Below are positions 3,173 through 59,269 of a DNA stretch of 64,000 nucleotides, piece by piece. Numbering within the stretch: position 1 is the first letter of the stretch; each line of letters starts with the position of its first letter. Source of the DNA: an uncultured Eggerthellaceae bacterium (GTDB lineage: Bacteria; Actinomycetota; Coriobacteriia; Coriobacteriales; Eggerthellaceae). The stretch lies in contig CAJOIP010000017.1 of NCBI GenBank assembly GCA_905234785.1, positions 24,494 to 88,493 on the forward strand, given 5' to 3'. The translations under genes were made by a program, and so were the position numbers. The notes beneath the pieces are model-generated. The model was not told where the DNA came from. It saw nothing but the letters and a program-made list of their open reading frames with translations, and did not search any database.

Positions 3173-3343
3173 CGTTCTCGTCTCCTTTTCCCTTCCAATG
3201 GAATGTTGAACTTGTATATAGTAGCGAATCGAACCGGCGCGTAACGGGCTGAAACGGATTAGTTCACCGTGAACGACATTCTTTTTCCCGATATGGCGTT
3301 ATCGATTTGACTGAAAGCCCGATGCACGGTTGCTACGATTGCA

Positions 3344-3371
3344 AGTAATCAATTTCCTCCGAGGAGATTGA

Positions 3372-3374
<3 letters not shown>
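3344..3374. repeat. AT-rich 31-bp palindrome, copy 1 (GTAATCAATTTCCTCCGAGGAGATTGATTAC)
   Basis: Read directly. The TAA stop of the ATPase gene (3372-3374) lies in the terminal arm. Two further copies are at 38844-38873 and 40037-40067. Confidence 0.85.
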
Positions 3375-4142
<768 letters not shown>

Positions 4143-9844: not shown

Positions 9845-10048
9845 TAGGCAATCGCCCGATAACAGCTGGTGTGGGGCGCGGAAAGCCCGCCACGGGGAAC
9901 GGCCTCGTGGCGGGCTTAAAAAATGCCGCTCACCTATATTTAACTCGTTCGACATACGCGGCGGAGCACATCACCCGTACAATCCTTCACTATCGCATGC
10001 TAAAGCGCCTTCGGGCGTTTTTTCGCACCATTCAGGGAGGGAGCGCGC

Positions 10049-11524: not shown

Positions 11525-11547
11525 CCCGTCCTGCGGTCGCTCGGGGC

Positions 11548-11638
11548 CGGGAAGAGGGGTTCGGGCTTGTCCTCGCCCGCATGGGCATTGGAGCTTGTTG
11601 CCATATCCGGCTGCGGAATCGCCCTCACCCCCCTTCCC
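11548..11638. repeat. Family C interspersed repeat copy
   Basis: gggaagaggggttcgggcttgtcctcg and ctgcggaatcgccctcacccccc match segments of the 18499-18719 repeat cluster, partly in the opposite orientation. Confidence 0.7.
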
Positions 11639-11675
11639 GGCCCCGAGCCACGCTTTTCAGGTAAAACGCCATTGA

Positions 11676-13912: not shown

Positions 13913-14547
13913 TTATGACTGAATGTACTTGCCGAACTCGTCGATGAGGTCGTGCCTCACGCACGCGAGCACCAAGTCGCCGTGGTACAGCGTCGACTCG
14001 CCCGTGGGAATGGACGATGCCGAGCCGTCTTTGCGCTCGAACGCGATGACGCGGATGTCGTGGTCGCGTTCGATGTCGTGCACGCGCAGGGCGCCCCGCT
14101 CGGTCCATGACAGGTCGATGGAAAAGCGCAGGACCTCGTAGTCGCCGAACGTGTCGAGATGCGACCCATGGCCGGAAATGGCCTTGCTGAACACTTCCTC
14201 GGCGACGAGCGTGGTGCCGCACACGTAGTCGATGCCGAGCTGCATGTACGCGCGCTCGTGGTCGTGGTTGTACAGGCGCGCGATGACGTGCGGCACGTCG
14301 TACAGGCGTTCGCGTTGTCGGACTGGGTGACGGCCGCCACGACGTCGCAGTCCTCGACGCCCGCCTTCACGAGCGTGTCCTCGTCGTAGCCGATGCCCTG
14401 CACGGTTGACCCGTTGAAGTTGCGGCCCAGGTTGTTGAACGCATCGGCGCGCCAGTCGATGACGCACACGTTGTCGCCGTTGTCGGAGAGCATGGACGCG
14501 ATGCGCGAACCCACGCGCCCGCACCCCACCACGATCACATTGCGCAT
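13913..14547 (-). pseudogene. Second TrkA/KtrA-type gene, disrupted by a frameshift/short internal deletion near 14305
   Basis: The N-terminal 81 aa (MRNVIVVGCGRVGSRIA..VVAAVTQSDNANA) are in the frame of ORF 13957..14547. The rest (RLYDVPHVIARLYNHDHE..TrkA_C) is in the frame of ORF 13913..14524. The total span of 635 nt is not a multiple of 3. About 8 aa are missing relative to the paralogue (DDNNLVSCEIASRIYDVP). Confidence 0.7.
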
Positions 14548-14651
14548 ACCGATTCCTTCCAGGTTACGACCTAGAACGATAGTATCTCACATGCAGCAAA
14601 GAAGCAGGCGAAAACGGCGGGGATCAGCGCGCTAAAGTTGCTCCTCGTGAA

Positions 14652-14701
14652 CCGTAGGGGCGCACTCCGTGCGCCCGCGCCCGTCAGGGCGCATGTGCGC
14701 C
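14652..14701. repeat. Family B palindromic repeat (core GTAGGGGCGC..GCGCCC)
   Basis: ccgtaggggcgcactccgtgcgcccgcgcccgtcagggcgcatgtgcgcc. Confidence 0.65.
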
Positions 14702-14773
14702 AGTGCTTCAATGCGTGTTGGGACGTGCCGCCTTCGGCGGCGGGCGCACGGAGCAGCACCGACGCGTCGCAAC

Positions 14774-16732: not shown

Positions 16733-16787
16733 TCTCCGCGAAGCAACGGGCAAAGCCCGAGATCCTTCGCCTTCGGCTCAGGATGAC
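16733..16787. repeat. Family A repeat overlapping the 3' end of the CorC-like gene
   Basis: The reverse strand reads gtcatcctgagccgaaggcgaaggatctcgggctttgcccg... The TGA stop of the CorC-like ORF lies inside the GTCATCCTGAGC core. Confidence 0.7.
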
Positions 16788-17614
16788 ATACCGTCAATCT
16801 CTTCCAACTGCACGACCTGCACGGTGCGGATGCGGCGGCGGCGCATGGTTCGCACCTTGAAGCGATATCCGTCGACGATAAGCTCGTCGCCTACCTGCGG
16901 CACCGCGTCGGCAACGTGCAGCAGCCAACCTGCGATCGTGTCGTACTGGTCGGACTCGACGACCGGCCAGCCCATTTCGAGCGCATCTTCGACCGGCAGG
17001 CGACCATCGACCAGCCATTCGGTTTCGGTCAGGCGCGTGACGTACGGCACTTCCGAATCGGTTTCGTCGATGATTTCGCCGACAATCTCCTCAACGATAT
17101 CCTCCAGCGTAATTAAACCATCGGTGCCACCGTATTCGTCCACTACAATGGCCATTTGTTGCCTATTCGTTTGCATCTCGGACAGCAGCGGGAATAGATC
17201 CTTCGTTTCGGGGACGAACAGGGCCTCTTGGATGTAGTCGGAAATGGGGCCGTCGATGTCGCCGTCGAGCACGGCGGGAATGAGGCTCTTGTAGCGCGCG
17301 ATGCCGATGATATGGTCGAGGTCTTCATGGAACACCGGCAGGCGCGAATACCCGGTGCCGCGCATGCGCTCGAGGGCGGCGCGCACGGTTTCGGTGTCTT
17401 CGACGGCGATGATGTCGACGCGCGGCTGCATGACGTCGCTCACCGTGAGCTCGTCGAGCTCGAGGATCTCGCCGATCATGCGCTTCTCGTCGTCGAGCAG
17501 CTCGTCGTTGTCGTCGACGAGCTCCTTTATCTCCTCTTCGGAAACTTGCCGCTTGCCGCGCCCGAACAAACCGTGGAATAGCCCGGGCTTGGAACTATCG
17601 CCTTCCTTTGACAT
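16778..17614 (-). CDS. CBS-pair + CorC_HlyC domain protein (CorC/YbeX-like Mg2+/Co2+ transport-associated)
   Basis: ..LTVSDVMQPRVDIIAVEDTETV..GYSRLPVFHEDLDHIIGI.. is the CBS pair. ..DEYGGTDGLITLEDIVEEIVGEI.. and the C-terminal transporter-associated domain follow. Confidence 0.8.
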   Translation of the reverse strand: MSKEGDSSKPGLFHGLFGRGKRQVSEEEIKELVDDNDELLDDEKRMIGEILELDELTVSDVMQPRVDIIAVEDTETVRAALERMRGTGYSRLPVFHEDLDHIIGIARYKSLIPAVLDGDIDGPISDYIQEALFVPETKDLFPLLSEMQTNRQQMAIVVDEYGGTDGLITLEDIVEEIVGEIIDETDSEVPYVTRLTETEWLVDGRLPVEDALEMGWPVVESDQYDTIAGWLLHVADAVPQVGDELIVDGYRFKVRTMRRRRIRTVQVVQLEEIDGMSS

Positions 17615-18498: not shown

Positions 18499-18719
18499 GT
18501 TGATTTGCGCCCAAGCGGAAGAGCGTAGCTTTCGGCGGAGGAGGGAGGGGTGCGGGCGATTCCGCAGGCACAAACTTGTAAGTTGATTTGCGCCCAAGCG
18601 GAAGAGCGTAGCTTTCGGCGGCGGGAAGAGGGGTGAGGGCGATTCCGCAGGCACAAACTATTATTTATATAGGTTTAGCCGAGGACAAGCCCGAACCCCT
18701 CTTCCCGCCGCCGAAAGCG
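18499..18719. repeat. Family C repeat cluster: two tandem 77-bp units plus one inverted partial unit
   Basis: The 77-bp units at 18499-18575 and 18582-18658 (gttgatttgcgcccaagcggaagagcgtagctttcggcgg..gggcgattccgcaggcacaaac) differ at 4 of 77 positions (my hand alignment). An inverted partial copy (cccctcttcccgccgccgaaagc) is at ~18697-18719. Confidence 0.85.
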
Positions 18720-20588: not shown

Positions 20589-20650
20589 GTAGGGACGCTC
20601 TCCAAACGCCCGTCAGCCATACTAGGCGGGCGCTCGGAGAGCGCCCCTAC
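20589..20650. repeat. Family B long palindrome
   Basis: gtagggacgctctccaaacgcccg - 14 nt - cgggcgctcggagagcgcccctac. Confidence 0.8.
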
Positions 20651-20675
20651 GGGCCAACTCGCAAGTCTTGCCTTT

Positions 20676-24801: not shown

Positions 24802-24867
24802 CCGCCCGCAGGTTAAGCCCGTAGGGGCGCAGGGGTCTGCGCCCCTATGGGGTCGACCTGCGGGCGG
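24802..24867. repeat. Family B nested palindrome
   Basis: ccgcccgcaggt..cccgtaggggcgcaggggtctgcgcccctatgggg..acctgcgggcgg, between the hypD stop and the cydA promoter region. Confidence 0.75.
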
Positions 24868-24897: not shown

Positions 24898-26073
24898 TTA
24901 GTAGTAGCGGTAATAGGCGGCGCAGCTGCCTTCGCTGCTTACCATGCAGGGGCCGATGGGGTTTTCGGGAGTGCAGACCTTGCGGAACAGGGGGCAGTCG
25001 TTCGGGGCCATGATGCCGCGCAGCACGTCGCCGCAGCGGCAGCCCTTCGGCTCGACGGTCGGTTCCACGTCGGGCTGGAAGCGGCGCACCGCGTCGAAGG
25101 CGGCGTACTCGTCGCGCAGGCGGTAGCCGCTGCCGGGAATGTCGCCCAAGCCGCGCCAGGTGGCGGTGCAGGTTTCGAAGACCTCGCTTATGGCGGCGAC
25201 GGCGTTCGGGTTGCCCTCGGGCATAACGCCGCGCGCGTAGGCGATTTCGATTTCCGAGCGGCCCTCGTGCAGCTGGCGCATGATCATGGCAATGCCCTGC
25301 AGCACGTCGACCGGCTCGAACCCGGTGATGACGCCGGGGATGCCGTAGCGCTGCGCCAGGAACTTGTACGGCTCGACGCCGATGATGGTGCTGACGTGCC
25401 CCGGCAAGATGAGCGCGTCGATCTTCAGCTGCGGGTCGGCCACGATGGCTTCCAGGGCACCGGGCATGTTCTTGTGCGCCGCGAAGATGCTGAAATTGGA
25501 AAGCCCCAGGTCGGCGGCGCGCTTCACCGCACGCGCCACGAGCGGCGTGGTGGTTTCGAAGCCGACGCCCACGAAGACGACCTGCTTGTCGGGGCTCGCC
25601 TGGGCAAGCGCGATGGCGTCGAGCGGCGAGTACACGATCTGGATGTCGCGCCCCGCCGCCTGCTCGGCCAGCAAGCTGGACGTGGAGCCGGGCACGCGCG
25701 TCATGTCGCCGAACGTGGCGATGGTGACGCCCGGCACGCGCGCGAGCGCGATGACCGTGTCGATGTCGCGGTTGCACGTGACGCACACCGGGCAGCCCGG
25801 GCCGCTGGCGAGGCGCGTTCCCTCGGGCATGAGGTCGCGGATGCCGGCGCGCGCGATGGAGACGGTGTGGGTGCCGCACACTTCCATGAGCGTGGCGCCG
25901 CCTTCGGGCGAGAAGCGCTCGATGGCGCGCACAAGGTCGCGTGCGAGGTTCGGGTCTTTGAATTTGTTAAGCGTGCTTTCCGTCGTAGGGGCGCTCTCCG
26001 AGCGCCCGTCAACCGTGGCAGGCGGGCGCTCGGAGAGCGCCCCTACGGTTGACCTGGAACCCTCGCCGGCCAT
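24898..26073 (-). CDS. hypD: [NiFe]-hydrogenase maturation protein HypD
   Basis: ..MEVCGTHT.., ..GPGCPVCV.., ..GFETT.., ..PGHVS.. motifs. The start ATG overlaps the hypC stop (TAATG). The first ~30 codons are repeat-derived (see findings). Confidence 0.9.
   Translation of the reverse strand: MAGEGSRSTVGALSERPPATVDGRSESAPTTESTLNKFKDPNLARDLVRAIERFSPEGGATLMEVCGTHTVSIARAGIRDLMPEGTRLASGPGCPVCVTCNRDIDTVIALARVPGVTIATFGDMTRVPGSTSSLLAEQAAGRDIQIVYSPLDAIALAQASPDKQVVFVGVGFETTTPLVARAVKRAADLGLSNFSIFAAHKNMPGALEAIVADPQLKIDALILPGHVSTIIGVEPYKFLAQRYGIPGVITGFEPVDVLQGIAMIMRQLHEGRSEIEIAYARGVMPEGNPNAVAAISEVFETCTATWRGLGDIPGSGYRLRDEYAAFDAVRRFQPDVEPTVEPKGCRCGDVLRGIMAPNDCPLFRKVCTPENPIGPCMVSSEGSCAAYYRYY
25985..26046. 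repeat. Family B long palindrome located inside the 5' coding end of hypD
   Basis: gtaggggcgctctccgagcgcccg - 14 nt - cgggcgctcggagagcgcccctac, translated as ..STVGALSERPPATVDGRSESAPT.. Confidence 0.85.
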
Positions 26074-26336
26074 TACACCAGCACCTGCTCGCCGGTTTCG
26101 TTGAACAGCGGGTCATCGACCATGTCGGCCATGGTCTGGATGAGCTCGAGCGTCTCTTCGGCGTACTGCTGGTCGACGACTTCGATGGCGAAGCCCGCAT
26201 GAACGAGCACGAAATCGCCCACTTGCGCCTGCGGCGTTAGGTCGAGCGCCGCGTCGCGCTCGGCGCCCATGGCCGTGACGCGCGCCATGCCGTCGTCCTT
26301 GATTTCCAGAATCTGCATTGGTACTGCCAAGCACAT
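26073..26336 (-). CDS. hypC: Hydrogenase maturation chaperone HypC
   Basis: MCLAVPMQILEI.. is the canonical MCL(A/G)(V/I)P N-terminus. RBS GAGGGAGG. The track start at 26411 is an upstream extension. Confidence 0.85.
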   Translation of the reverse strand: MCLAVPMQILEIKDDGMARVTAMGAERDAALDLTPQAQVGDFVLVHAGFAIEVVDQQYAEETLELIQTMADMVDDPLFNETGEQVLV

Positions 26337-26365
26337 GATGAAGCCTCCCTCGGTTTTGCGCCATT

Positions 26366-29026
26366 CTACCGCGAAGCGCAAGCCACGACCGCTTGCCCGT
26401 AGGAAACGCACCCATCGTTCGGTGGCAGGCTGGCGTTGAGCGCAACCGTGAACCCGGCCTGGCCCAACTGCGCCGTGGACTTTTCGACGAGGTAGCGGTT
26501 CATGAAGCAGCCGCCCGACAGCGCCACGAGGCTGATGTCGTACATCGCGCGCGCCAGTTCCGCGATCTGCGCGATGGCTCCCACGATGGCATCGTGGAAC
26601 CGCTGCGCGATTTCGGGAACGGGCACGCCGGCGGCCAGGTCGTCGAGCACCGCGCGGATGGTCGGCTCGGCGTCGAGCAGCACCACCGACGTGTCGTGCG
26701 CCGTGCTGGAATCGGTCGCCGCGTTCTTGGTGATGGAAATGGCGTAACGACGTTCCGTTTCCTGGTCGGAGTTTTCCGAGTTGGCGGGCAGAGCCCGAGA
26801 TCCTTCGACTTCGGCGGCTATGCCGCCTTCGCTCAGAATGACATCATGGGGATGCTGGGCGCTTCGGGCGGCATCGAGCAGGATGGCGGGCTCGCCTTCG
26901 TAGGTGGGCTCGGTGCAAATGCCGAGCAAGGCGGAAACGGCGTCGAACAGGCGCCCGACCGACGAGGTGTAAGGCGTGTTCAGGCCGCTTTCGATCATCT
27001 GCTCGCAGATAGCCGCTTGCGCCCCGAGGGCTTCGATGGCAGGCTTCGCGCCGGGATGGTCGAGCAGGTCGAACGCCCAGAGCATGCCGTACGCCATGCG
27101 CAGGGGGTGCTTCACAGCCGCGGCACCGCCCGGCAGTGGAAGGTACGTGAAGTTGGCGAAGCGCTCGTAGTCGGCCTGGTTGGCCAGCAGCACTTCCCCG
27201 CCCCATATGGCGCCATCGGCACCGTAGCCGGTGCCGTCGAAGGCGATGCCGATAGCGGGGCCGAACAGGCCATGCTCGCCGAGCACCGACGCGATGTGCG
27301 CGTGGTGGTGCTGGACCTGCACAAGCGGAAGGCCGGTTTTGCGGACCTCGTCGTGCGCCCATTTCGACGCGAGGTATTCGGGATGCATGTCGCACGCGAG
27401 CATGGTCGGCGTTAGGTCGAACAGCTCCTCGAAACGCGCCTTCGACTCGAGCCAGGCGTCGTACACGTCGGCATCTTCCATGTCGCCGATGTGTTGTGAA
27501 ACGAACGCCTGACCGTCGCATGCGTACGTGAACGTGTTCTTCTGTTCGGGGCCAGCAGCAAAAACGCACGCACGCTGGGACATGCCGCCTGCGGCGGCGG
27601 GCGCAGAGGTCTGCGCCCCTACGGAATCGGCCTGCAACTCACCAGGAGCATGCGCGATAGATCTCGCCCCTACGGATTCAACCTGCGGGATAGTTATGGG
27701 CACAGGGGCGTAACCGCGGGCGCGGCGGATGAACTGGGTTGCGACGTTCGGCTCGCCATAGGCGTCGACGCCGCCGAGGTTCAGCACGCGGATGACCGAG
27801 TCGTCGTAGCGCGACAGGATGGGTCGGTTGTTGCCGAGCACCGCGTCGGCAATGCCCGCAAGCTTCTCGCACGCTTCGCCATCGTCGACGACGATGGGTT
27901 CGTCGTGCACGTTGCCCGACGTCATGACGAGCATGTTCTTGCCCGTAGCCTCTTCGAAGTCGTGAACGAGCAGCGCCTGCACGGGCGTCGCCGGCAGCAT
28001 GACGCCCAATTCGGGCAATGCGTCTGCCAAGCCGTCTGCCAGCGGCGCATCGGCGCGCTTGCGCAGCAGCACGATGGGGCGGGCCGCCGATTCCAACTGC
28101 CCCGCCTCGGCAGCCGAGACCTCGCACCACGCGCGCGCTGCCGCAACGTCGGGAACCATCACCGCCAGCGCCTTGCCGTCGCGCCGCTTGCGCCGGCGCA
28201 GCTCGGCGATGGCTTGGGCGTTACCCGCGTCGCACACCAGATGGAAGCCGCCCAAGCCTTTAACAGCCAGGATGCCGCCTTCGGCGAGCAAGGCAACGGC
28301 GGCGGCAAACACGGAATCGGACCAATCGCGCAGGTTGGCCGTAGGGGCGCTCTCCGAGCGCCCGGCGCCACTTGCGGCGCAAGTTGAGGGTTTCGAATCG
28401 GCCGGCGTTGCAACCTCGTTTTCGTTCGCTTCGCTCACCGGGCGCACGGTGTGCGCCCCTACGGGACCACCTGCACGTTCGCTCAGCGGCTTCCAGCTTA
28501 TTTGGGGGCCGCAGACGAAGCAGGCGTCGGGTTGGGCGTGGAAGCGGCGATCGGCTGGGTCGGCGTACTCGCGCGCGCAATCGTCGCACATCTTGAACGG
28601 CGCCATGGAAGTTGCGGGCCGGTCGTACGGCAGCGAGTCGATGATGGTGAACCGCGGGCCGCAGTTCGTGCAGTTGATGAACGGGTAGCGGTAGCGCCGG
28701 TCGGCGGGGTCGAGCAGCTCGCGCAGGCAATCGTCGCAGATGCCCAGGTCGGCCGACACGAGCGTGCCTTCGTCGGCATCGTCCATCTGCGATTCGCGAA
28801 TCTCGAACTTCTCGCAGTCCTGCAGCGGCACTTCCGTAAGCTCGACTTCGCGCACGACCGCCGCGGCTGGCGGGTTCATGTGAAGCTCGGTGACGAACTC
28901 GTCGAGAAGCTTGCCTTCGCCCTCCGCGTGAATGAGCACGCCGTCGAGGTCGTTCAGGACCCAGCCGTTGATGATGTAGTGCCGCGCAAGCCGGTACACG
29001 AAGGGGCGGAAACCCACCCCTTGCAC
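26366..29026 (-). CDS. hypF: Carbamoyltransferase HypF; the true start is probably a few codons upstream of the track start
   Basis: Acylphosphatase motif VQGVGFRPFVYRLA, two Zn-finger CxxC pairs (CDDCLREL..CTNCGPRF; CDDCAREY..CFVCGP), a YrdC-like region (GGILAVKGLGGFHLVCDA) and a Kae1-like C-terminus. The track start at 29026 is GTG inside the conserved IVQGVGFRP. The in-frame upstream sequence reads ..HIIEALDIRVRGI. Confidence 0.9.
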   Translation of the reverse strand: MQGVGFRPFVYRLARHYIINGWVLNDLDGVLIHAEGEGKLLDEFVTELHMNPPAAAVVREVELTEVPLQDCEKFEIRESQMDDADEGTLVSADLGICDDCLRELLDPADRRYRYPFINCTNCGPRFTIIDSLPYDRPATSMAPFKMCDDCAREYADPADRRFHAQPDACFVCGPQISWKPLSERAGGPVGAHTVRPVSEANENEVATPADSKPSTCAASGAGRSESAPTANLRDWSDSVFAAAVALLAEGGILAVKGLGGFHLVCDAGNAQAIAELRRRKRRDGKALAVMVPDVAAARAWCEVSAAEAGQLESAARPIVLLRKRADAPLADGLADALPELGVMLPATPVQALLVHDFEEATGKNMLVMTSGNVHDEPIVVDDGEACEKLAGIADAVLGNNRPILSRYDDSVIRVLNLGGVDAYGEPNVATQFIRRARGYAPVPITIPQVESVGARSIAHAPGELQADSVGAQTSAPAAAGGMSQRACVFAAGPEQKNTFTYACDGQAFVSQHIGDMEDADVYDAWLESKARFEELFDLTPTMLACDMHPEYLASKWAHDEVRKTGLPLVQVQHHHAHIASVLGEHGLFGPAIGIAFDGTGYGADGAIWGGEVLLANQADYERFANFTYLPLPGGAAAVKHPLRMAYGMLWAFDLLDHPGAKPAIEALGAQAAICEQMIESGLNTPYTSSVGRLFDAVSALLGICTEPTYEGEPAILLDAARSAQHPHDVILSEGGIAAEVEGSRALPANSENSDQETERRYAISITKNAATDSSTAHDTSVVLLDAEPTIRAVLDDLAAGVPVPEIAQRFHDAIVGAIAQIAELARAMYDISLVALSGGCFMNRYLVEKSTAQLGQAGFTVALNASLPPNDGCVSYGQAVVACASR
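26786..26842. repeat. Family A repeat inside the hypF coding sequence
   Basis: gggcagagcccgagatccttcgacttcggcggctatgccgccttcgctcagaatgac, translated in frame as ..DVILSEGGIAAEVEGSRALPA.. Confidence 0.8.
27599..27675. repeat. Family B repeat units inside the hypF coding sequence
   Basis: gggcgcagaggtctgcgcccctacgg and gcgcgatagatctcgcccctacgg, translated as ..VESVGARSIAHAPGELQADSVGAQTSAPAAAGG.. Confidence 0.8.
28341..28462. repeat. Family B repeat arms inside the hypF coding sequence
   Basis: gtaggggcgctctccgagcgcccg (28341-28364) and cgggcgcacggtgtgcgcccctac (28439-28462), translated as ..VGAHTVRPVSEANE..SGAGRSESAPTANL.. Confidence 0.8.
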
Positions 29027-29084
29027 GATGCCGCGAACCCGTATGTCAAGCGCCTCTATGATGTGCGCGTTCCTTTCTCGTTGT

Positions 29085-29145
29085 CCGCTTCGCGGAGATC
29101 CCTCGCCTTCGGCTCGGGATGACAGAGGGGAAGGCTCGGGATGAT
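29085..29145. repeat. Family A repeat (one full and one partial unit)
   Basis: ccgcttcgcggagatccctcgccttcggctcgggatgac then ggctcgggatgat, between pgi and hypF. Confidence 0.7.
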
Positions 29146-29201
29146 GGGTCGATGGCCCATGATGGTAGGGGGACGACCTATGATGACAGAGGGCATATGC
29201 A

Positions 29202-32042: not shown

Positions 32043-32111
32043 GATGGTCCTTTCCCAGAACGCTTATGCATGTATGCCACCATTGTACAATCACCAAACC
32101 GCTCGACTGTT

Positions 32112-32215
32112 GTCATCCTGAGCCGAAGGCGAAGGATCTCCGCGAAGCGATAGGCCGAGGCGCTTATCTGCTAGGCGGGCAAAGCCCGAGATCCCTCGCT
32201 TGCGCTCGGGATGAC
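32112..32215. repeat. Family A inverted pair (long hairpin)
   Basis: gtcatcctgagccgaaggcgaaggatctc ... gagatccctcgcttgcgctcgggatgac. Confidence 0.8.
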
Positions 32216-32282
32216 ACAGCCTTGTATCACCCAATTGGCTGGCAATCGACGGCGGGCGCGATGAATCGCGCCCCTGCGAGGG

Positions 32283-33700: not shown

Positions 33701-33757
33701 CGCATGCGCCCTGCGGGCGCGGGCGCAGAGGTCTGCGCCCGCCGGCGACAGCCGGCA
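33701..33757. repeat. Family B-like GC palindromes upstream of argH
   Basis: gcgcatgcgccctgcgggcgcgggcgcagaggtctgcgcccgccggcgacagccggc. Confidence 0.6.
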
Positions 33758-36408: not shown

Positions 36409-36572
36409 GTCATTCCGAGCGTAGCGAGGAATCTCCGCGAAGCGTCGGGCAAAGCCCGAGATCCTTCGACTCCGCGCTTCGCGCTCCGCTCAGGATGACA
36501 GCCTGTTGGGGCGCTTCGCGCTCCGCTCAGGATGACAACCTTTAGGGTGCTTCGCGCTCCGCTCAGGATGAC
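36409..36572. repeat. Family A repeat array (one forward unit plus three reverse GCGCTCCGCTCAGGATGAC units)
   Basis: gtcattccgagcgtagcgaggaatctccgcgaagc.. followed by 3x cttcgcgctccgctcaggatgac. It fills the argD-argB gap. Confidence 0.8.
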
Positions 36573-36584
36573 AGCTTATAACTG

Positions 36585-38824: not shown

Positions 38825-38843
38825 GTGCACCTTTCATCTTGAA

Positions 38844-38873
38844 TAATCAATTTCCTCCGAGGTAATTGATTAC
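38844..38873. repeat. AT-rich palindrome, copy 2 (TAATCAATTTCCTCCGAGGTAATTGATTAC)
   Basis: Read directly. It lies 3 nt after the argC stop and ~20 nt before the argJ start. Confidence 0.85.
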
Positions 38874-38876
38874 TCG

Positions 38877-39999: not shown

Positions 40000-40036
40000 G
40001 GCATTCACCGTATAAACCGATTACGGGCAGGTAAGC

Positions 40037-40067
40037 GGGTAATCAATTACCTCCGAGGAAATTGATT
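40037..40067. repeat. AT-rich palindrome, copy 3 (GTAATCAATTACCTCCGAGGAAATTGATTAC)
   Basis: Read directly. It lies 12 nt after the stop of ORF 40080..40274 and ~40 nt upstream of the putative arg -35. Confidence 0.85.
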
Positions 40068-40079
40068 ACCTGGCAGGCG

Positions 40080-42740: not shown

Positions 42741-43571
42741 TTAGGAAAGAAGACCCAGGTACCAGCTTACGAACGGGGCGCCCACCAACATGGTGATAAC
42801 GCATGCTGCGGCAATAGAGGGCCCGAAGGGAATGGCGCGCCTCATGACGCCTTCGCCTTCACCCGCGGAATCTGCCGTCGGCTTTGAGCTTGCAATCGCC
42901 ACGATTATGCCGATGACGCATGAAAGGATGACCAAAAACAGGCATTGTTGCCAGCCAAAGTAGAAGCCTGCCACGAAATACAGCTTCAAGTCGCCGCCGC
43001 CCATCGATTCGCGCCCGAACACCCTGTCCGCGATGAGCACGATGACGAGCAGCGCTACGCCGACGCCGAATGCGCTTCCTATATAGAACAGCACCTGGCC
43101 GGCTTCGAGCCAGCCCAGCGCGAACGCGACCGCCAGGTACACGGCACGCACGACGAGCGCCACGACGATGCACGCGTTGGGGATAATGCGCTCGTCAAGA
43201 TCGGTTAGCGAAAGGAACAGCAGCACGCCCGCGAACACGAGCAGCTCGGCCGTTTCCAGCGTGAGACCGTACGCCGCCACGATGGCGACGAACGCCACCG
43301 CGCACACCACCTCGGTCAGAGGATAGCGCGCGCTCACGTTCTCGCCGCAGTAACGGCATTTGCGCCCAGAAGCCAGCCAGCTGAACACCGGCACCAAGTC
43401 GCGCACGCCCAGCTCGTGGCCGCACGTGGCGCAGTGCGAACGGCCTGCGAGCACCGATTCGCCATGAGTCGACCGCCATGCCCAGCAATTGATGAAACTG
43501 CCCATGACCAGGCCAAACACAGCGGCAATGACCAGGAAGTACACGGTGAGTATCGGGTCAGTAAACGACAT
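42741..43571 (-). CDS. pilD: Prepilin peptidase (A24 family, PilD)
   Basis: N-terminal Cys box ..CATCGHEL..GRKCRYCG.., the catalytic Asp contexts ..LSLTDLDERIIPN.. and ..GGGDLKL... The start is at MSFTDPIL (ATG 43571). The track extension to 43898 reads through repeats. Confidence 0.85.
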   Translation of the reverse strand: MSFTDPILTVYFLVIAAVFGLVMGSFINCWAWRSTHGESVLAGRSHCATCGHELGVRDLVPVFSWLASGRKCRYCGENVSARYPLTEVVCAVAFVAIVAAYGLTLETAELLVFAGVLLFLSLTDLDERIIPNACIVVALVVRAVYLAVAFALGWLEAGQVLFYIGSAFGVGVALLVIVLIADRVFGRESMGGGDLKLYFVAGFYFGWQQCLFLVILSCVIGIIVAIASSKPTADSAGEGEGVMRRAIPFGPSIAAACVITMLVGAPFVSWYLGLLS

Positions 43572-43624
43572 GCCGCGATTATACCCCTCGCGACTTACGC
43601 TTGACGTGCTTTTGTTCCCGCCCT

Positions 43625-43822
43625 GCCATCCTGAGCGGAGCGGCGAAGCGCCCCCTTCTGTCATCCTGAGCGGAGCGGCGAAGCCGCGGAGTCGAAGGAT
43701 CTCATGCGTTGCGGCGGGCAGAGCCCGAGATCCCTCGCTTGCGCTCGGGATGACAAAGGGGGGACACTCGGGATGACAAAAGGGGAGCGCTCGGGATGAC
43801 AAGGGGGGCGCTCGGGATGACA
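43625..43822. repeat. Family A repeat array including four tandem GCTCGGGATGACAARGGGG units
   Basis: 2x (g)tcatcctgagcggagcggcgaagc, one inverted gggcagagcccgagatccctcgcttgcgctcgggatgac, then ~22-bp tandem ..ctcgggatgacaa(a/g)gggg.. units. It lies in the divergent pilD / Wzy_C-gene promoter region. Confidence 0.8.
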
Positions 43823-43876
43823 AGGGGGGCAGATGAGCCGATGGACGCCGAAAGCCGGTGTCGTATACTTTCCCGC

Positions 43877-45364
43877 ATGGGAAACGGCCTGCTTTCAAAA
43901 CCTGTTGATCTGAAGTTCCTGCGCAAGGTCACCGCCGAGCGCGTGTCGTTCGCATTTCTGGCGCTATGGTGCCTTCTACCTGCGGCCATGGTGGGCGTAT
44001 GCCTGTGGCTGGGAATTTCGCAGGGGTACGCGTTCGATGCCGAAACCACCCCTTATGGGCCGGTGTACTATCAGCTGTTCCCGCTGTACCGGCGCGCGTT
44101 CCTCGTGTTGGGGTCGCTCACCATCGCATTCGCGCTCTCGCAAGTTGCCATGTGCTGGAAAAGCATCGCGTCGATTGAAAGCGTGAAAGCGCATCCGTGG
44201 TTTTACCTGCTGGCGGCGCTGCTCGTTTGGGCCGTCGCGTCGACGCTGCTCTCCGATAACCCGTGGCTGCAGTTTGCGGGGACGCAGTATCGCTGCGATG
44301 GGCTGTACAGCTACTTCATCTACGGCTCGGTTCTCGTATGCGCGCTGCGCCTGCACGGCGAGCGCCTGCGCATGTGCGTGCTGCGCCTGTTCGTCGGGGT
44401 GGCCGATGCGCTGTGCATCGTCATGATTTGCCAGGCGCTGCACGTGCCGGTTATCTGGCAATGCTTCGAGGCGCCTTATGCGGTGGTCTTCAACAACCTG
44501 AACCACTTCGGATACATCCTGTGCATGGCGAGCTTGTGCGCCATGGGGCTGTACTTGCATGACGGCACCGGGAAATGGGGCCTTGCGCACATCGCGTCAT
44601 TCGGACTGCTCGTGTTCACGCTGCTCGCGAACGACACGTTCGGGTGCTACCTTGCGGTTCTCGTGGGCATGGGGGCCGTCGGCCTTTTCTACGTTAAGAG
44701 CGGGCACGCGTGGGGCACGCGGCTGGCCATGCCCCTTGCCGTGTTCGCTGCGCTCAGCCTCGTGAACCTGTGCGGGCTCATGGCACCGCTCAACCCTCAC
44801 GGGCTTGGCGCAAGCATCTTCCAACTTGGCACCGATGTTTCGGCGATAAACGACGGGTCGCCAGAAGCGGGGCGAGCCGGCTCGGGCCGTTTCAAGTTGT
44901 GGGTCGCCGCCCTTCAGATGATTCCGGAACGGCCGATATTCGGCTATGGGCCAGAAGGGCTAATCGGGGCATATCAAGCTCGGATGAATCTTGATCGCCC
45001 TCATAACGAAATCATTCAGTATGCCGTGTTCCTCGGCATTCCGGGGCTTCTTCTATACCTGTCGGCGCTCTTGTCGTTGGCCGTCCAACAGTGGAAGCGC
45101 TTGAAAAGCCTCGGTTCAATTACGCTTGTCGCCATGGGAATCGTCGTCGGCTACGTGGTGTCGTCGCTGTTCGGGAACACGATGTTCAACACGTCGCCCT
45201 ACTTTTGGATGATGCTGGGATTTGCGGCGCAAGGGCACAACAGTGCAGAAAGGCTGTTCACCCCGCAAAGCGTGACTCGGCACGGCGTAGTGGAAAAGGC
45301 GGTCGCAATCGCAGTCCTTGTTGTTTGCGCTCTGGCGGTTATGCTCTTGGGGATTGCGCTGTAA
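43877..45364 (+). CDS. O-antigen ligase/polymerase-like (Wzy_C domain) polytopic membrane protein
   Basis: More than 10 TM helices and a periplasmic-loop motif ..GSGRFKLWVAALQMIPERPIFGYGPEG..LDRPHNEIIQYAVFLGIPGLLLY.. typical of WaaL/PglL/TfpO-type proteins. The start is at MGNGLL (ATG 43877). Confidence 0.7.
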   Translation: MGNGLLSKPVDLKFLRKVTAERVSFAFLALWCLLPAAMVGVCLWLGISQGYAFDAETTPYGPVYYQLFPLYRRAFLVLGSLTIAFALSQVAMCWKSIASIESVKAHPWFYLLAALLVWAVASTLLSDNPWLQFAGTQYRCDGLYSYFIYGSVLVCALRLHGERLRMCVLRLFVGVADALCIVMICQALHVPVIWQCFEAPYAVVFNNLNHFGYILCMASLCAMGLYLHDGTGKWGLAHIASFGLLVFTLLANDTFGCYLAVLVGMGAVGLFYVKSGHAWGTRLAMPLAVFAALSLVNLCGLMAPLNPHGLGASIFQLGTDVSAINDGSPEAGRAGSGRFKLWVAALQMIPERPIFGYGPEGLIGAYQARMNLDRPHNEIIQYAVFLGIPGLLLYLSALLSLAVQQWKRLKSLGSITLVAMGIVVGYVVSSLFGNTMFNTSPYFWMMLGFAAQGHNSAERLFTPQSVTRHGVVEKAVAIAVLVVCALAVMLLGIAL

Positions 45365-49332: not shown

Positions 49333-49487
49333 CCGCTTCGCGGAGATCCTTCGACTCCGCGCTTCGCGCTCCGCTCAGGATGACAACCCGGGAGGGCGCT
49401 TCGCGCTCCGCTCAGGACGAACATGACAATATGTCATCCCGAGCGAAGCGAGGGATCTCGGGCTTTGCCCGTATGACCAGGATGACA
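49333..49487. repeat. Family A repeat array
   Basis: ccgcttcgcggagatccttcgactccgcgcttcgcgctccgctcaggatgac.., a second gcttcgcgctccgctcagga.. unit, then the forward gtcatcccgagcgaagcgagggatctcgggctttgccc. It fills the pilB-pilT gap. Confidence 0.8.
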
Positions 49488-52858: not shown

Positions 52859-55800
52859 CTACGAAACCTTCACCCAAGTACACTCGCCCCAACCGTAATT
52901 ACGATAAACGCCATCGCCTAAGTGGGTAACCGAAAACGCGGACATCCAAGAGTCGCTTACCGTTGCCGGCAACGGCGTCTGCATATCCGAGCCGCCTTTT
53001 TGGACGCACTTGTAGTAGGACCCGTTGTAATAGATGAGGCCGTACACGCTTCCGTCCCACGAGATATCTGCCGCCACGTAAACGACGCCATCCGCACTCT
53101 GAAGCTCCTTCCATTTGTCAATAGAAGCGCTTGTCATGGCCTTTTCCGCAGCGCTCACCTCGCTGCCCGCTTGCGGACCGCTCGAGGAAGAGCTGACTTT
53201 CACCGACACTGAGCCAATCACCTTGCCGGCGAATTTCACGGTGATGGTCGTTTCGCCTTCCGCCAAATACGTGACGCGCGCGCTGCCGCCTTCCACGGAA
53301 ACGATGCTGGCATCATAGCCTTCGTACGTGAGTTGGCTTGCGGGATCTTGCACCGCCTGGTCGTTGATCTTGCAGTCGGAGACGCCGATAGCCCCCTGGT
53401 CGCCGACCGCGCCTGCCAACGACGTTGTGTCGAGCGTCGCTTCGACATCCATCGGCGAAACGTGCACGGGAACGGTGCCCAGCAGCTTGCCGTTGAGGAA
53501 AACGCTTACCTCCGCATCGCCCGCAGCAAGGTACTCGATCGTCTTGCTGCCGTTCGTGCACTTGGCGACGAGCGGGTTGCTGCACGTGTACGTCAGCATG
53601 CTTGACGGATCGCTCTCGACGGCATCCTTCTTATAGCTAACGTCGATCGCGCCCGTTTCTCCAACGCGCCCGGAAAGCGACTCGGTATTCAGCGATTGCT
53701 CGATGAGCGGCTCGACGTCGATGGTAATCGACCCCTGCGTACCATAGTCGACACGCGTGTCGTTCACATACAAGTCGTTCGACCATATTTTCGCCGTCAA
53801 CGTGATCGTTCCGCTCGATTTAAGCGTAATGCCGTCATTGTTTTTGTAGAACTGAATTGTCGCGTCACCAGCGGTGATGTCGAACGCCCAGCCAACATTG
53901 GCCATGCTAACCCATCCGGCATTCGTCCAAAGATCGACGAACACCTTGTCGCCATACTTGTATGGACCTTCGGGAGATATGCGAATCGTGGTTTCGGGCG
54001 TCACGTTCGGATCGACGTTTACAGATATGAAGCTCGTCGACTTCTTGCCGTTATACGTTGCAATGAGGCAGTACGTGCCCGCAGCGGGAACCGTTACCCT
54101 GCCGTTCGAAACGTCGGCCACCTTGTTGCTGCCCTGGGCGTCGCTGTACACCGCCAACGCAGCCTGCCCCGTAACGTCGGTATCGCCATACTTCACGGTG
54201 ACGCCGGAAACGGTAATCGGGAACCCGGCGATGCCGCTGAGCGCAGAGCCGCTAATCGTGACGTCGTATTGCGCCGCGCCGACGGTGACCGTAATCGAAT
54301 TCGTCGACTTCTTGCCGTTGTACGTCGCTTTGAGCGTATATGTCCCGGCATTGGGTATCGTGACCCGGCCGTTCACGACATCGGCCACTTTGTTGTTGCC
54401 CTGGGCGTCGCTGTATACCGCGAGCGATGCCTGCCCCGTAACGTCGGTATCGCCATACTTCACGGTGACGCCGGAAACGTCAATCGGACTTCCGGCCGTG
54501 CCGCGCATGGCGGAGCCGCTAATGGTGACCGTGCCCTCGGGGCCAGGCGGGATGTCGCCGCCGGAATCGAATTTGGGCTCGCCTGAAAGCGGCGTTATCG
54601 AAGTACCCGTTGCCGCCACGTCCATCTTGAACCATTTCACGCCAGACCCATAGCCATCGGGAAGCCGGGTCTCCTTCAGATAATACGTGCCCAGGAAGAA
54701 ATCGCCCACGTAGAAGACGCCCGTTTCGTCAGATGCGAGCCCGCTTGTCATCGTTGAACCGGCCGCCGATAGGATGTCGAACGTCGCACCGCCCAAGGGC
54801 CCCTTCGTGGCATCGTCGATTTTCTTGAGGATCACCTTCGAGGAATCGCTGTTGAACGTGTTGGTGATCGTCGCGATGCGCCCGTCTTGGCTATAGACGT
54901 ACGTCGGCGTGAAGTTCGAGGTCACATCCACATCGGCGCCAATCGCGTTTCGCTGGACGACGTTCATCTCGACGACGTAGTATCCGTACCCTTCGGGAAG
55001 GTTGAGCGCGACGGTGAACCAATCGTTCGAATCCCCTGCGCTCTTGCGCACGGTGTAACTTCCATACGGCTTCACGACGTAGCCTTCGGCGGCAAGCGTG
55101 TTAACGAGGTTCTCCGCCTCTGGTTGATTGGTGTAGTTGTCGATGGCGACCTCGCCAGGGGCGGCGCCGCTCGAGCTTCCGTTGCCGATCGGCTTGTAGC
55201 GGGAATTCAGGTGTTCCACCCAGATAACCTCGGACTGGCCGTCTTGCCCCTCGGGCACCGTCACCACGTAGTATTTGTGCTCGTCTTCGTCGTAAATCAA
55301 ATCGCCGCGAGACATATGATTCCAACGCGGATGGCCATTCCACAGTTGGTCGTATACCTTTGTGCTCCAAACCGTGCCCGTGTACTTGACTCGGTTGTTG
55401 GTAACTGCCGAGTTTTGGGAAGCCGGGCCATCGGGCATGTTGTTTACGTCAATGTTGTTATAGCCTTGGAAAATCCAGTAATAGCCAGGACCATCGCCTT
55501 CTTCTTTATCCCAGAAGAAGAAGGCCGAAGTCGCCGGCACGGAAATGCTGGTGTTCCCATCGGGATTAGTGTCGTAAAAATCGGACAGGGTCATTTCCTC
55601 GCCGTTGATGGTTACCGTCGGCTCTTCCACCTTCAGGCTATCGGCAAGCTCGACATTCGTGCCGATAACGCCCTCGGCGGCTTTCAGGCCAACTTGGTAC
55701 AGCTCGAAGCTTACCTCGAGGTTTTCAACGCGAGAATCTCCGCCCTGCACTTCATCGGCCCCGTCGTTCCATTTCTTCACAACGGTGAACGCCTTGGTGT

Positions 55801-58800
55801 TGAGCTTGTACGCATTGGTGACGGTGTACGCGCGTTCCCCCGGCACGAGCACCTGCAGGGTTTTCACGCCGGAAATGCGCTGTTCAGGCGAAATGTCGTT
55901 GGGAAGCGTCGACAAGAACGACGCCTGGTCAAACGGGACCTCTTCGCTCGTCGGCTTGGCGATCGCCCCAAGGTTGGCCCCTTTTGGAACGACGAGCTCG
56001 ACATATCGTTCGTCGGCGCCGACCGTGGCCGACTGTCCAAGCGTGACAGACGACCTGTACGCCACGCCTGCATCGTCGTGATACGTGAAGGACAAAACGC
56101 TTCCAGCCGCGAAGCTTTTTGCAGACGCGCCGTTTTCCGAGCTCAGGCTCAGATATGCTATCTGGGAATCGCCTTCGGGCACGTCAACCCAAAGATCCGC
56201 CGACGCCGAGTTATAGCTCGTCAACCACTCGCCCCGTTCGGCGTATCCGCTCAGCGCGTTTTCCGACAGCTCGTATGACGAGTATTCTTCGCGGGTGAGC
56301 ACATCCGCGTAGCGGGGCACGAACATGACCTTCGCCCATTCGACTCGCTCGCCCCCGACGACGTACGCGTCGTTGGCGGTCAGCGTGAAGTCGGCTGCGC
56401 TTCCGATGCCGGCCGGATACGTGTCCACCACGTGGTCGCCGCCATTGGCAACGCCGTTGACCGTGAACGAGATAGTTTCGTTCAGCTCCTTTTCCTCGTC
56501 GGGAACGCTCGCGTCCCACACCTTTTCGACGAGGATGGGAACGCGCAAATCCTCCCAGTAAATCGTGCCGTCAGCCGCGTCATGCGCCGTGCCCGTCAGG
56601 CCGTTGCGATCGTTGATGACGTTGTACAGGCAAGCGTTCGCCCCCGCCGCGAACGAGCCGAACGGTTTTCCTTCATCGCCATGGCCCTCGTATTGAACCG
56701 GGTCGATAAACACGCCGATACGCGCTGTTTCGGCGATGCCGTCTGATGCGATGTTCAACACCGTGGTGGAATTCTGGTTCAGGTACACATTGCACTGCTT
56801 GCCGGCGTCGTTCAGGTTGTCGTACACGCGCACATCGCCCGAGAAGTTCAACTTGGCGCCGACGTTGTTCGCGTCGAACGCGCCGCCGTTGACCGATTTG
56901 TTTCCGCTGTACGTTCCCCCGACGACGTCGACCACGCCGTCGTCGACCGTCCACACGGCACCGCCGACGTTTCCGGCGGCGTTGCCCGTCATCGTGCAAC
57001 CTTCAAACCTCACCGTGGCGAGACCGCGGTTCGAGCAAACAGCTCCGCCGATGTTCGGCGCATAGCAGTCGACGATGGAGCCGTTCTTCATCGAAAGGGC
57101 ATCCGCCCAGATGAAAATGCCGCCACCGGAATTCGCAGCCGATGTGCAGCCGGAAATACTGCAGTTTTCCAGAGTCGCCTTGACAAGCCAGTCGCTCAAG
57201 CAGATGCCCGCGCCGTTCAAATACGTCCTGCACGAGCTGATGGAAACATTGCCATCTTCGCCCTTCGCATTGAACGTCGCGCCCCCCTCGACGTAAACGC
57301 CGCCGCCATGCTGGCCAGATTCGCACTGGGCAATGGAAGACACGCCGAGCATCTGCAGAACGCCCACAGACTCGTACACGCCGCCGCCGGAGGCATTGGC
57401 TGAGGACGACGAGATGAGCGACGAATCTTTCATGGTGAATTTGCCCAGCGAATACACGCCGCCGCCGTTTCCGCCCGCCTTGCAGCTCTGCACCGACGCC
57501 GTATCTTGCAGGGTCGCCTTCGCGCCCTGCGCGACGTACGCTCCGCCGCCGTCGGCAGTGGCCGAGCCTTTTTCGATGCGCGTCGAACCGGCGATGACGG
57601 CGCTCGAGCCAGACGTGAGGAACAGCGCGCCACCGCTGGTTGCGCTACTGTCGAGCACCTTTACGTCAGTGAGGTCGACCGACGCGAGCTTGCCGCTTGC
57701 CGTGTTGCTGTTCAGGTAGATGGCGCCGCCGAAGCCGGACGCGCTGCTGTTCTGCATGGTGGCATTGCTGATCGTAGCGCTCGCGCCAGGCTCGACGATA
57801 ATCGCGCCGCCGTTCACGGCGCTGTTCCCGTCTTCTTCTTTCGATCCGCCGAATACCGTTTCCTTGTCGCCGCCGATGGTAAGGGTGCCATAGCCGCCTA
57901 TCTTCACGGCGCCGCCGCCGTGAACGCCGTCATGCCCGATGCCGTTATCAACTTTGTTGCCCTTGAACGTGCTGCCTGAAATCGACAGGGTGCTCTTGTT
58001 GTTCAGGGTCTTCGGCTCGTTGTTGACGGTAACCGTCTTGTCGGCATCGGACAACACGGCGATTGCGCCGCCTTCGCCCGCATACTTTTCCGCGTTCTTC
58101 TCGTCAAGGTACTTGGTGACCGTCGACGTGTTTTTCTCGAACGTACTTCCCGTAACTGCCACCATCGAGTTTTCGCACGCGCGTATGGCGCCGCCGGCTC
58201 CATTGCTTGCATTGTTCTTGAATACGCTGTCCATGATCGCGAGCGAATTCGGCTTCTTTTCGATTATCTGGTTCGCGCTGTCCTTCTTGCCCTCGTTCTT
58301 GTTGCTCGACAAGTTGATTGCGCCGCCGCCGGCATATCCGCTTTCATTGTTCTCGAACGTGGCGCCAATGGACACGACCGTCATTTCTTGGCCCGCGCAA
58401 ATCGCCCCGCCGTCTTCCGCCGCGTAATTGCCCGTCAGGACCGCGCCCCTAAGCAGGTAAATCGTCGACTTTTGGCTGGCATATACCGCGCCGCCCCGAC
58501 GCGCTGCGCCGTTTTTCAACGTCGTTCCCGTATCAACCACGAGAGTCGTATCGTCTTTCGACATGTTGACAAGGCCGCCGTAGCTGGCGTCGGAAACGGC
58601 ATCGCGTGCGCCGCTGTCGTTTATGTCGAAGCCGCCGTCCATCGTGATGTTGGCTAGCCAAAGCTCGTTCAGCTCGGTTCTGATCATCGTGCTGTCGGCG
58701 ATGCCCGCAGCCTTCGTAATCGTGCAGGCCGCCCCGACCTCCGGGTCGGTCGTAAGGGTGACTTTGTAATCGCCTTTTGCCGTGATGCTGCTCGACAGAG

Positions 58801-59200: not shown

Positions 59201-59269
59201 ATCGTTACCACCCAATCCGTTGAAACCCGTTGGCCATGCCCTGTTTTCCCATCGTGTGCCCCAACGTTC

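Follow-up and report, generated by a model that had tools for sequence, protein, structure and literature searches.

Two families of palindromic repeats resident in the non-coding DNA of a 64-kb stretch from an uncultured Eggerthellaceae bacterium (hereafter, the window) also lie inside two of its [NiFe]-hydrogenase maturation genes, at three sites in hypF and at one in hypD. We consider it very probable that these segments are in-frame copies of the resident repeats, carried as tolerated passengers at permissive positions of the HypF and HypD proteins. One family, hereafter family B, is headed by GTAG and resembles the repetitive extragenic palindromes (REPs) and REP doublets forming hairpins (REPINs); the other, family A, is headed by TGTC and is of the CGTC type of REP. 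A preliminary description of the same DNA had placed repeats at these four sites in intact genes; strict and relaxed pattern searches find them where it put them, and the insert translations that it quoted (STVGALSERPPATVDGRSESAPT; DVILSEGGIAAEVEGSRALPA) are exact. Coordinates are positions in the window, labels of the form L### denote loci, and labels of the form P#### denote HypF orthologue proteins.

A family B unit opens with an unpaired GTAG head, after which comes a GC-rich stem-loop, GGGCGC(TC)-loop-(GA)GCGCCC, with a stem of 6–8 bp and a loop of 3–8 nt; many units carry a CAGGTYGRNCC extension 5' of GTAG. Good copies all begin with GTAG and then GGGCGC, and degenerate heads (ATAG, GCAG) occur in two copies. 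The strict pattern GTAGGGGCGC-N7-GCGCCC, allowing at most one mismatch, has six matches in the window (0.00 expected from shuffles), four of them intragenic: 25985 and 26024 in hypD, 28341 and 28440 in hypF. Looser copies are found in hypF (27599–27634, 27650–27685) and between genes (14654, 20589–20650, 24802–24867, 32254). Family B occupies eight loci in the 64 kb, with 0 expected by chance, and within the window three of the eight are intragenic. The intergenic copies listed earlier at 14652, 20589 and 24802 stand; the one at 33701 is real but lacks the head, being reduced to GGGCGCAGAGGTCTGCGCCC at 33722–33741, upstream of the true argH start. Inverted dimers of family B units occur at 20589–20650, 25985–26046 and 28341–28462, and also in related loci (L135:3617–3742, L136:5115–5178 and L136:5598–5661).

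Family A units parse as TGTC, ATCCYGAGC, a loop of 3–5 nt, GCGARGGAT and a CTC tail. The stem has nine positions, begins with A-T and T-A, contains a conserved tandem G.A mismatch, and shows compensatory T-A/C-G changes between copies. Among 13 parsed units the head is TGTC in 12 and TGCC in one; the loop is 3–5 nt in seven and longer in six, one of which spans two adjacent heads, and it reaches 22 nt in the hypF copy. The head TGTCATCCYGAGC, with at most one mismatch, is matched 20 times in the window against 0.26 expected. One of these matches lies inside hypF (26783–26843) and the others are intergenic or at gene edges.

The coding copies are clear homologues of intergenic ones, at 87–100% identity. 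Over 64 nt, the hypD dimer shares 87.5% identity with the intergenic dimer at 20589–20652, the right arm of the dimer at hypF site 1 matches the arms at 20627–20652 and in hypD at 26 of 26 nt, the 20-mer hairpin of unit 2b at hypF site 2 is identical to the intergenic copy at 33722–33741, and the family A copy in hypF is 93.5% identical over 31 nt to intergenic positions 16747–16777. The dimer at site 1 has 27-nt arms that are 89% complementary, separated by a 76-nt spacer; that in hypD has 25-nt arms that are 100% complementary, a 14-nt spacer and a CAGGTCAACC extension. Site 2, in the linker between the YrdC and Kae1-like domains, holds two units (2a and 2b), and at site 3 the CTC tail and a GGGC..GCCC mini-hairpin come after the long-loop stem. 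The features are listed in Table 1.

Table 1. Host genes, coding inserts, window-specific DNA relative to the nearest relative (L001), and selected intergenic repeat copies.
Feature	Position	Strand	Details
hypF (carbamoyltransferase HypF)	26366–29026 from first GTG; probable start ATC at 29062	minus	886 or 898 aa
hypC	26073–26336	minus	87 aa; Pfam HupF_HypC
hypD	24898–26073	minus	391 aa; Pfam HypD residues 43–390
hypF site 1, family B inverted dimer	28331–28474	minus	144 nt (48 codons); Zn-finger/YrdC linker; read AGGPVGAHTVRP...GAGRSESAPTANL
hypF site 2, unit 2a	27650–27685	minus	decayed family B unit CAGGTTGAATCC-GTAGGGGCGAGATCTATCGCGCAT; read QVESVGARSIAH
hypF site 2, unit 2b	27599–27634	minus	family B unit CAGGCCGATTCC-GTAGGGGCGCAGACCTCTGCGCCC; read QADSVGAQTSAP; direct orientation relative to 2a
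hypF site 3, family A unit	26783–26843	minus	long loop; in loop of Kae1-like second subdomain; read VILSEGGIAAEVEGSRALPA
hypD insert, family B inverted dimer	25985–26056	minus	72 nt; codons 7–30; read RSTVGALSERPPATVDGRSESAPT
hypF site 1, window-specific DNA	28344–28484		141 nt
hypF site 2, window-specific DNA	27582–27638		17+28 = 45 nt
hypF site 3, window-specific DNA	26756–26859		17+22 = 39 nt net
hypD, window-specific DNA	25972–26068		66+6 = 72 nt
Intergenic family B dimer	20589–20650		closest intergenic relative of hypD copy
Intergenic family B hairpin	24802–24867		directly downstream of hypD; RNA fold −61.6 kcal/mol
Intergenic family A copies	29085–29145		just upstream of hypF
Reference intergenic family A dimer	32111–32216		TGTC heads outward

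The inserts occupy linkers and loops, as the preliminary description had supposed. Pfam finds all five HypF domains in the window protein (in 899-aa numbering, acylphosphatase at 7–89, Zn fingers with the best match at 109–142, YrdC at 259–429, the Kae1-like domain at 498–597, and its second subdomain from 606 in two stretches), and the inserts lie between the domain matches. Alignment to the solved HypF structure 3VTH breaks at the same three sites, where window residues 179–238, 448–484 and 723–782 correspond to 9, 3 and 16 residues. In an AlphaFold model of HypF (mean predicted local distance difference test score, pLDDT, of 75; predicted template modelling score of 0.75), the flanking domains score 80–95, and pLDDT falls below 50 at residues 190–226 (site 1), 451–483 (site 2) and 725–747 (site 3). 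HypF had also been described as longer, at 886 aa or more, than the ~750 aa of E. coli HypF; solved HypF chains have 761–772 aa and Eggerthellaceae orthologues 792–963 aa. HypD ranges from 361 to 479 aa in the family.

The nearest relative, L001, is a syntenic contig whose HypF (P0002) is 94.9% identical to that of the window on 751 conserved columns; the global nucleotide alignment of window and L001 gives 85% identity. Relative to L001 the window has extra DNA at each of the four sites (Table 1), and each of the four length differences (141, 45, 39 and 72 nt) is a multiple of 3, as had been anticipated. Neither L001 nor any of the 119 other HypD orthologues listed has the hypD dimer; the window protein has 37 residues before the conserved FKDP motif, compared with 11–13 in 79 of 120 HypD orthologues. 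At site 2, the 45 nt missing from L001 make unit 2b specific to the window lineage. The preliminary description had proposed a comparison with orthologues that lack the segments, and in L001 they are absent at the four sites with the exception of unit 2a, which the sister lineage shares: L001 carries an intact orthologous unit, CAGGTTGAATCCGTAGGGACGCGATTTATCGCGCCC, where P0002 reads SVGTRFIAP. Because unit 2a is shared and better preserved in L001, it is older than the split of the two lineages. Sites 1 and 3 are filled in L001 by different palindromes, and both are, on sequence comparison, sites of turnover rather than simple empty sites. Across 120 orthologues, the linkers at sites 1, 2 and 3 vary from 8 to 79, 10 to 77 and 7 to 65 aa. 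Repeat-associated differences extend outside the coding region: 91 nt (29106–29196) that overlap the family A copies upstream of hypF, and run further upstream, are also missing from L001.

The reading frames of the inserts are constrained. When the 72-nt hypD dimer is translated in six frames, two are open, one per orientation, and both read VGA...(R/A)P...G(R/A)...APT; the CCG-TAG frame carries a stop. This VGA...APT frame is used by every coding family B copy in the window and in P0002, P0007 and P0017. The shared frame is the signature of a survival filter and requires no adaptive explanation. The hypC stop and the hypD ATG overlap (TAATG), a junction kept in L001, so that the coupling of the two genes proposed earlier stands. 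As the stretch from the dimer to the conserved KFKDP segment has no in-frame ATG, GTG or TTG, and the TAATG coupling is conserved, the hypD dimer is most probably translated. Predicted insert-derived peptides include VGALSER, SESAPTTESTLNK and DVILSEGGIAAEVEGSR.

We propose that copies of the two non-coding families would have entered HypF at two linkers between domains and at one surface loop, and HypD at its extreme N-terminus. The majority of intragenic insertions would have been lost, and the survivors would be those with a net length that is a multiple of 3 and a stop-free frame, which for family B would be GTA-GGG-GCG / GCC-CCT-ACG, read VGA...APT. Translation of the inserts would then add a probably disordered stretch of peptide, tolerated by the enzymes, most likely as a neutral or slightly deleterious passenger and not as an adaptation. 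We infer that the inserts are translated and that enzyme activity is retained. Family B may have inserted by a single-strand, hairpin-dependent mechanism like that of REP-associated tyrosine transposases (RAYTs).

Several observations weigh against this account. The HypF of L135 (P0017), which is 79% identical and belongs to a distant clade, has a homologous site 1 dimer with perfect master arms and a spacer that is ~65% identical, and relatives nearer to the window than P0017 are without it; this implies either that the insertion is old and was lost repeatedly or that insertion occurred in parallel. In the L001 alignments none of the four sites shows a duplicated target or a clean empty site; the insert boundaries there are blurred, since the DNA is only 85% identical and the flanking linker codons differ too. 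Neither Pfam searches of the tested window open reading frames (ORFs) nor a scan of the window and 138 loci for the HUH...Y motif found a RAYT/Y1 transposase. A phmmer search with HypD residues 4–36 against 1.84 billion representatives returned two tiny ORFs only and no other protein with the dimer in frame, with a short query and a database of 50%-identity clusters; a synthetic two-frame peptide probe, likewise short, returned one 43-aa ORF from 5.8 billion proteins. A general in-frame process in this genome, beyond hypF and hypD, is thus not demonstrated by peptide search. Finally, contig L139 matches the window at 100% identity over 3767 nt and may belong to the same assembly. L139 and the distant-relative contig L135 both come from the metagenome ENA sample ERZ28573574, and the window organism and the P0017 organism therefore co-occur.

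In-frame palindromes recur across the family. We compared palindromes in the window and five related loci (L001, L135, L136, L137 and L138), and set the threshold for local palindromes in the control at arms of at least 24 nt with at least 80% complementarity. L135 has a family B dimer at hypF site 1; L136 has a family B variant at site 3, and the same variant flanks hypF in intergenic DNA; L137 has complete CGTC-headed dimers at sites 2 and 3. In the hypF of L001, site 1 holds a 27-nt palindrome identical to the intergenic window copy at 38845–38871, site 2 a family B unit, and site 3 a 77-nt perfect palindrome. L138, an E. lenta-like locus, carries the palindrome CGGATGTTTCACGTGAAACATCCG in the HypD N-terminus and a further copy between genes. 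Well-matched coding palindromes in the window and the five loci are confined to hypF, apart from those in hypD (the window dimer and a shorter 24-nt palindrome in L138); pgi, arg, cyd and other genes of these six regions have none. The HypF linkers and the HypD N-terminus are, from these comparisons, recurrent permissive spots where insertion, decay, deletion and replacement recur.

The same clustering raises the question of whether insertion is targeted, with a resident palindrome drawing in further palindromic elements by hairpin-to-hairpin recognition, beyond what protein tolerance explains. All four window inserts fall in 3.9 kb of ~55 kb of coding DNA, and intergenic copies flank the operon; within the 64 kb, neither family has a coding host other than hypF and hypD. 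Moreover, sites 1 and 3 each hold different palindrome families in sister lineages, site 2 gained a second unit beside an older one, and some REP families insert into pre-existing palindromes (PMC3733652). Against this, tolerance alone gives the same pattern, since the linkers vary from 8 to 79 aa and most of their sequence is not repeat; neither insertion intermediates nor a target motif were found; and the sample is of six lineages only. We regard targeting as unlikely; the clustering in hypF and hypD is compatible with tolerance alone, and leaves some room for targeting. A stronger form would make the HypF linkers and the HypD N-terminus landing pads that at least four unrelated palindrome families (the GTAG type, the CGTC/TGTC type, the AATCAATTTCC...GGTAATTGATT type and the ATGTTTCACGTGAAACAT type) entered independently, beyond tolerance alone, and we consider this quite improbable. 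If it were true, it would imply either hairpin-directed targeting to resident elements or selection for strong RNA structure; in the latter case the selected structure would lie where domains meet and where hypC and hypD are coupled, and might for example pause translation or set expression.

A related view, that the inserts are exapted structured elements whose hairpins are kept for a role at the RNA or DNA level, seems to us very unlikely. Such a role might be to slow ribosomes at HypF domain boundaries for folding, to tune HypD synthesis after hypC-hypD coupling, to stabilise or process the operon mRNA, or to bind protein. In the mRNA sense, the hypD dimer forms a 25-bp perfect hairpin that begins 27 nt into the ORF and is very stable (−63.2 kcal/mol, z −8.4), and the RNA fold of hypF site 1 reaches −84.5 kcal/mol (z −5.9), so that an effect of insert hairpins on translation is plausible from the predicted folds. 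Site 1 arms are better conserved than the spacer between window and L135, the left arm and the master copy differ by a compensatory pair, and palindromes sit at exact domain boundaries in all six lineages examined. At sites 2 and 3, however, the inserts fold no more stably than their shuffled counterparts (z −0.6 and −1.5), and unit 2a is in decay; conserved arms would also be expected if the insertion were recent or if other copies had converted them. In most orthologues the linkers are short and contain nothing recognisable as a repeat, and different lineages carry unrelated palindromes or none.

That hypF and hypD are decaying pseudogenes, or that repeats were mis-assembled into them, is highly improbable. 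Repeats are a classic cause of misassembly, the sole second contig examined (L139) may be no independent witness, being identical, and ATC replaces ATG or GTG at the orthologous hypF start. Nevertheless, both reading frames, of 886 and 391 codons, are intact, and the hosts are under purifying selection, with ratios of nonsynonymous to synonymous substitution (dN/dS) against L001 of 0.137 for hypF, 0.133 for hypD and 0 for hypC (dS 0.24–0.49), HypC being 100% identical in the two; values of ~0.13 reject the pseudogene alternative, one that the preliminary description had raised. GC content at third codon positions in the hyp genes (0.82–0.91) is comparable to that of neighbouring genes, the four length differences are all multiples of 3, contigs of five independent relatives carry comparable in-frame palindromes, and the start codon at this position in the sister lineage is ATT, with 12 conserved codons after it. 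That the segments are ancestral linker sequence, their likeness to the intergenic repeats being convergent or the repeats being derived from the gene, is hardly credible, for although unit 2a is common to the sister lineage and the site 1 dimer is present in the distant P0017 lineage, neither the nearest relatives nor most of the 120 HypF and 120 HypD orthologues have the segments, which match intergenic copies exactly over 26 nt and belong to a hairpin type that, among the matches listed, occurs across many phyla.

The hypF start is unusual in its own right. The first orthologous codon is non-canonical both in the window (ATC-ATA-GAG, 29057–29062, minus strand) and in L001 (ATT-ATA-GAG, ~9964–9969), and other relatives have ATG or GTG at this codon (M/V-I/V-E-A-L-D). 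The 12 codons that precede the first GTG (29026) are conserved, with a GGA-rich Shine-Dalgarno sequence 8–9 nt upstream. The pattern suggests that hypF may use a non-canonical ATY start. The window has a GC content of 62.6%, and the nearest named homologues of its HypF and HypD are 'Eggerthellaceae bacterium' and Adlercreutzia proteins; window HypF is P0001 at 100% identity.

In-frame insertion of palindromes into genes is established, and the Rickettsia palindromic elements (RPEs) have been reviewed (PMC10969869). The inserts described here as tolerated passengers are a clear further example of the process already described in Rickettsia and other bacteria. A survey of REPs (Di Nocera et al., 2013; PMC3733652) characterised GTAG-tagged REPs as having stems of 5–13 bp and loops of 2–20 nt, frequently forming dimers and being associated with RAYTs. 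It described CGTC-tagged REPs as often bearing the tag TGTC, with an 8–9 bp stem starting AT, a 4–5 nt loop and a 3-nt tail (consensus CCA), and no known transposase. Both kinds occur in frame within genes of several species, mostly as dimers of 20–30 aa, with some ORFs hit twice, and the authors suggested that such copies sit in flexible linkers or loops. The supplementary table of the same paper lists a GTAG REP at residues 3–9 of Opitutus terrae HypF, and P. putida inserts that read VGAG....

Family B shares with GTAG REPs and REPINs (PMC3733652; Bertels & Rainey, 2011, PMC3116915) the unpaired GTAG head, the short GC-rich stem-loop, interspersed copies (extragenic at five of the eight window loci), inverted dimers (here with spacers of 14–76 nt), and in-frame V-G-A copies (~20–48 aa) that hit some ORFs repeatedly. 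Unlike them, it has an Eggerthellaceae (Actinomycetota) host, from a phylum outside the 2013 survey list, no RAYT in the sequence scanned, dimer heads that point outward, and the CAGGTYGRNCC extension. Family A resembles CGTC REPs, including Rickettsia conorii RPE-4/RPE-6 and Neisseria dRS3, in its variant TGTC head, AT-start stem of 9 bp, dimers and intragenic in-frame copies, and in L137, a relative, the head is literally CGTC. The loop is 3–5 nt in seven of the 13 parsed units, and a 3-nt tail is present. Family A differs in its CTC rather than CCA tail, its conserved tandem G.A mismatch, its long-loop variants (22 nt in hypF), its outward dimer heads (reported to be rare for CGTC REPs), and its new host phylum.

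The likeness to Rickettsia is closer than the preliminary description had claimed. CGTC-1 and CGTC-4 of Rickettsia conorii have been equated with RPE-6 and RPE-4 (PMC3733652), and family A fits the superfamily that contains them, which makes the analogy, for family A, nearly one of family relationship. RPE-1, as summarised in PMC10969869 from Ogata et al. (2000, 2002), is likewise a selfish palindrome that sits in frame in housekeeping genes unrelated to one another, where the protein fold can accommodate it. According to that summary, RPE-1 is ~150 bp, encodes a conserved peptide, and occurs in many genes of a reduced, AT-rich genome; the window elements are 36–144 nt and GC-rich, and within the 64 kb hypF and hypD are the sole genes in which they were found. 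As far as the review describes RPE-1, the resemblance is functional only. Similarly, intragenic MITEs (miniature transposable elements with inverted repeats) such as ERIC, BOX and Nezha (PMC10969869) are small, non-autonomous and able to form in-frame fusions. MITEs, however, have terminal inverted repeats derived from insertion sequences, and target-site duplications, whereas no target duplication or parent insertion sequence was seen for the window inserts.

New here are the Actinomycetota host, a phylum not listed in PMC3733652, the presence of both REP superfamilies inside one gene, and the reuse of the same linkers by different palindromes across one bacterial family. Literature searches returned nothing relevant on Eggerthella repeats or hypF repeats, and a search by the sequence GTCATCCTGAGC returned primer matches only. 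In-frame decoration by REPs, so far known mainly from Proteobacteria, the Planctomycetes-Verrucomicrobia-Chlamydiae group and Rickettsia, is thereby extended to a gut Actinomycetota family and to [NiFe]-hydrogenase maturation genes. The length variation of Eggerthellaceae HypF and HypD is at least partly derived from repeats and does not point to new domains, and the insert sites would be useful as presence/absence markers for strain typing. Additionally, a compact operon with filled and differently filled alleles in close relatives offers a test system for the neutrality of inserts, for the effects on translation of stable hairpins within ORFs, and for the spread of REPs with no evident RAYT.

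Hairpins of the family B type are found well beyond this family. A scan of genome contigs with CGTAGGGGCGCN{7,8}GCGCCC gave matches that, among those listed (loci L002–L121), fall in many phyla; the GTAGGGGCGC...GCGCCC hairpin appears there in Chloroflexota, Acidobacteriota, Cyanobacteria, Clostridia, Gemmatimonadota, Coriobacteriales and others. Nearly every listed match has stem complementarity beyond the search pattern, and many extend to a full GTAG...CTAC palindrome; this extra complementarity marks the hairpin type as cosmopolitan. The exact 23-mer family B master was found in 13 short metagenome contigs (GC 47–67%), which had no convincing host gene around the repeat and no RAYT. An Rfam scan of the window gave zero family matches.

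Family A also shapes gene edges in the window. The last codons and the TGA stop of a CBS/CorC_HlyC gene (16778–17614, minus strand) are supplied by a family A head, TGTCATCCTGAGC (16776–16788). A unit derived from family A, GCGCTTCGCGCTCCGCTCAGGATGACA, forms short head-to-tail arrays with a spacing of ~36–37 nt in two intergenic regions (36469–36577 and 49354–49426). A dense cluster of family A heads (42741–43898, 43624–43822) separates a prepilin peptidase gene from an O-antigen ligase-like gene; the longest ORFs from both sides enter the cluster, and automatic start calls there are therefore probably too long.

Other palindromes are interspersed in the same DNA. One, TAATCAATTTCCTCCGAGGTAATTGATTA, lies directly 3' of minus-strand genes in the window (3342–3378, 38841–38876 and 40036–40072) and is present in L001 (453–480 and 10536–10562), where one copy is in frame in HypF site 1 and is read KSISSEVIDS. 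A further family, family C (GGGGCCGGGAAGAGGGGTTCGGGC...), is intergenic at 11536–11651 and 18532–18718; the first of these copies was considered as a coding insertion and rejected, as the real purB start lies downstream and the copy is intergenic. Between hypD and cydA, L001 has a TacA1/GNAT acetyltransferase toxin-antitoxin pair (13966–14729) that the window is without. An ORF of 2119 aa in the window (52859–59215, minus strand) holds a 250-nt tandem duplication at 54013–54529, with 80% identity and a spacing of 267 nt.

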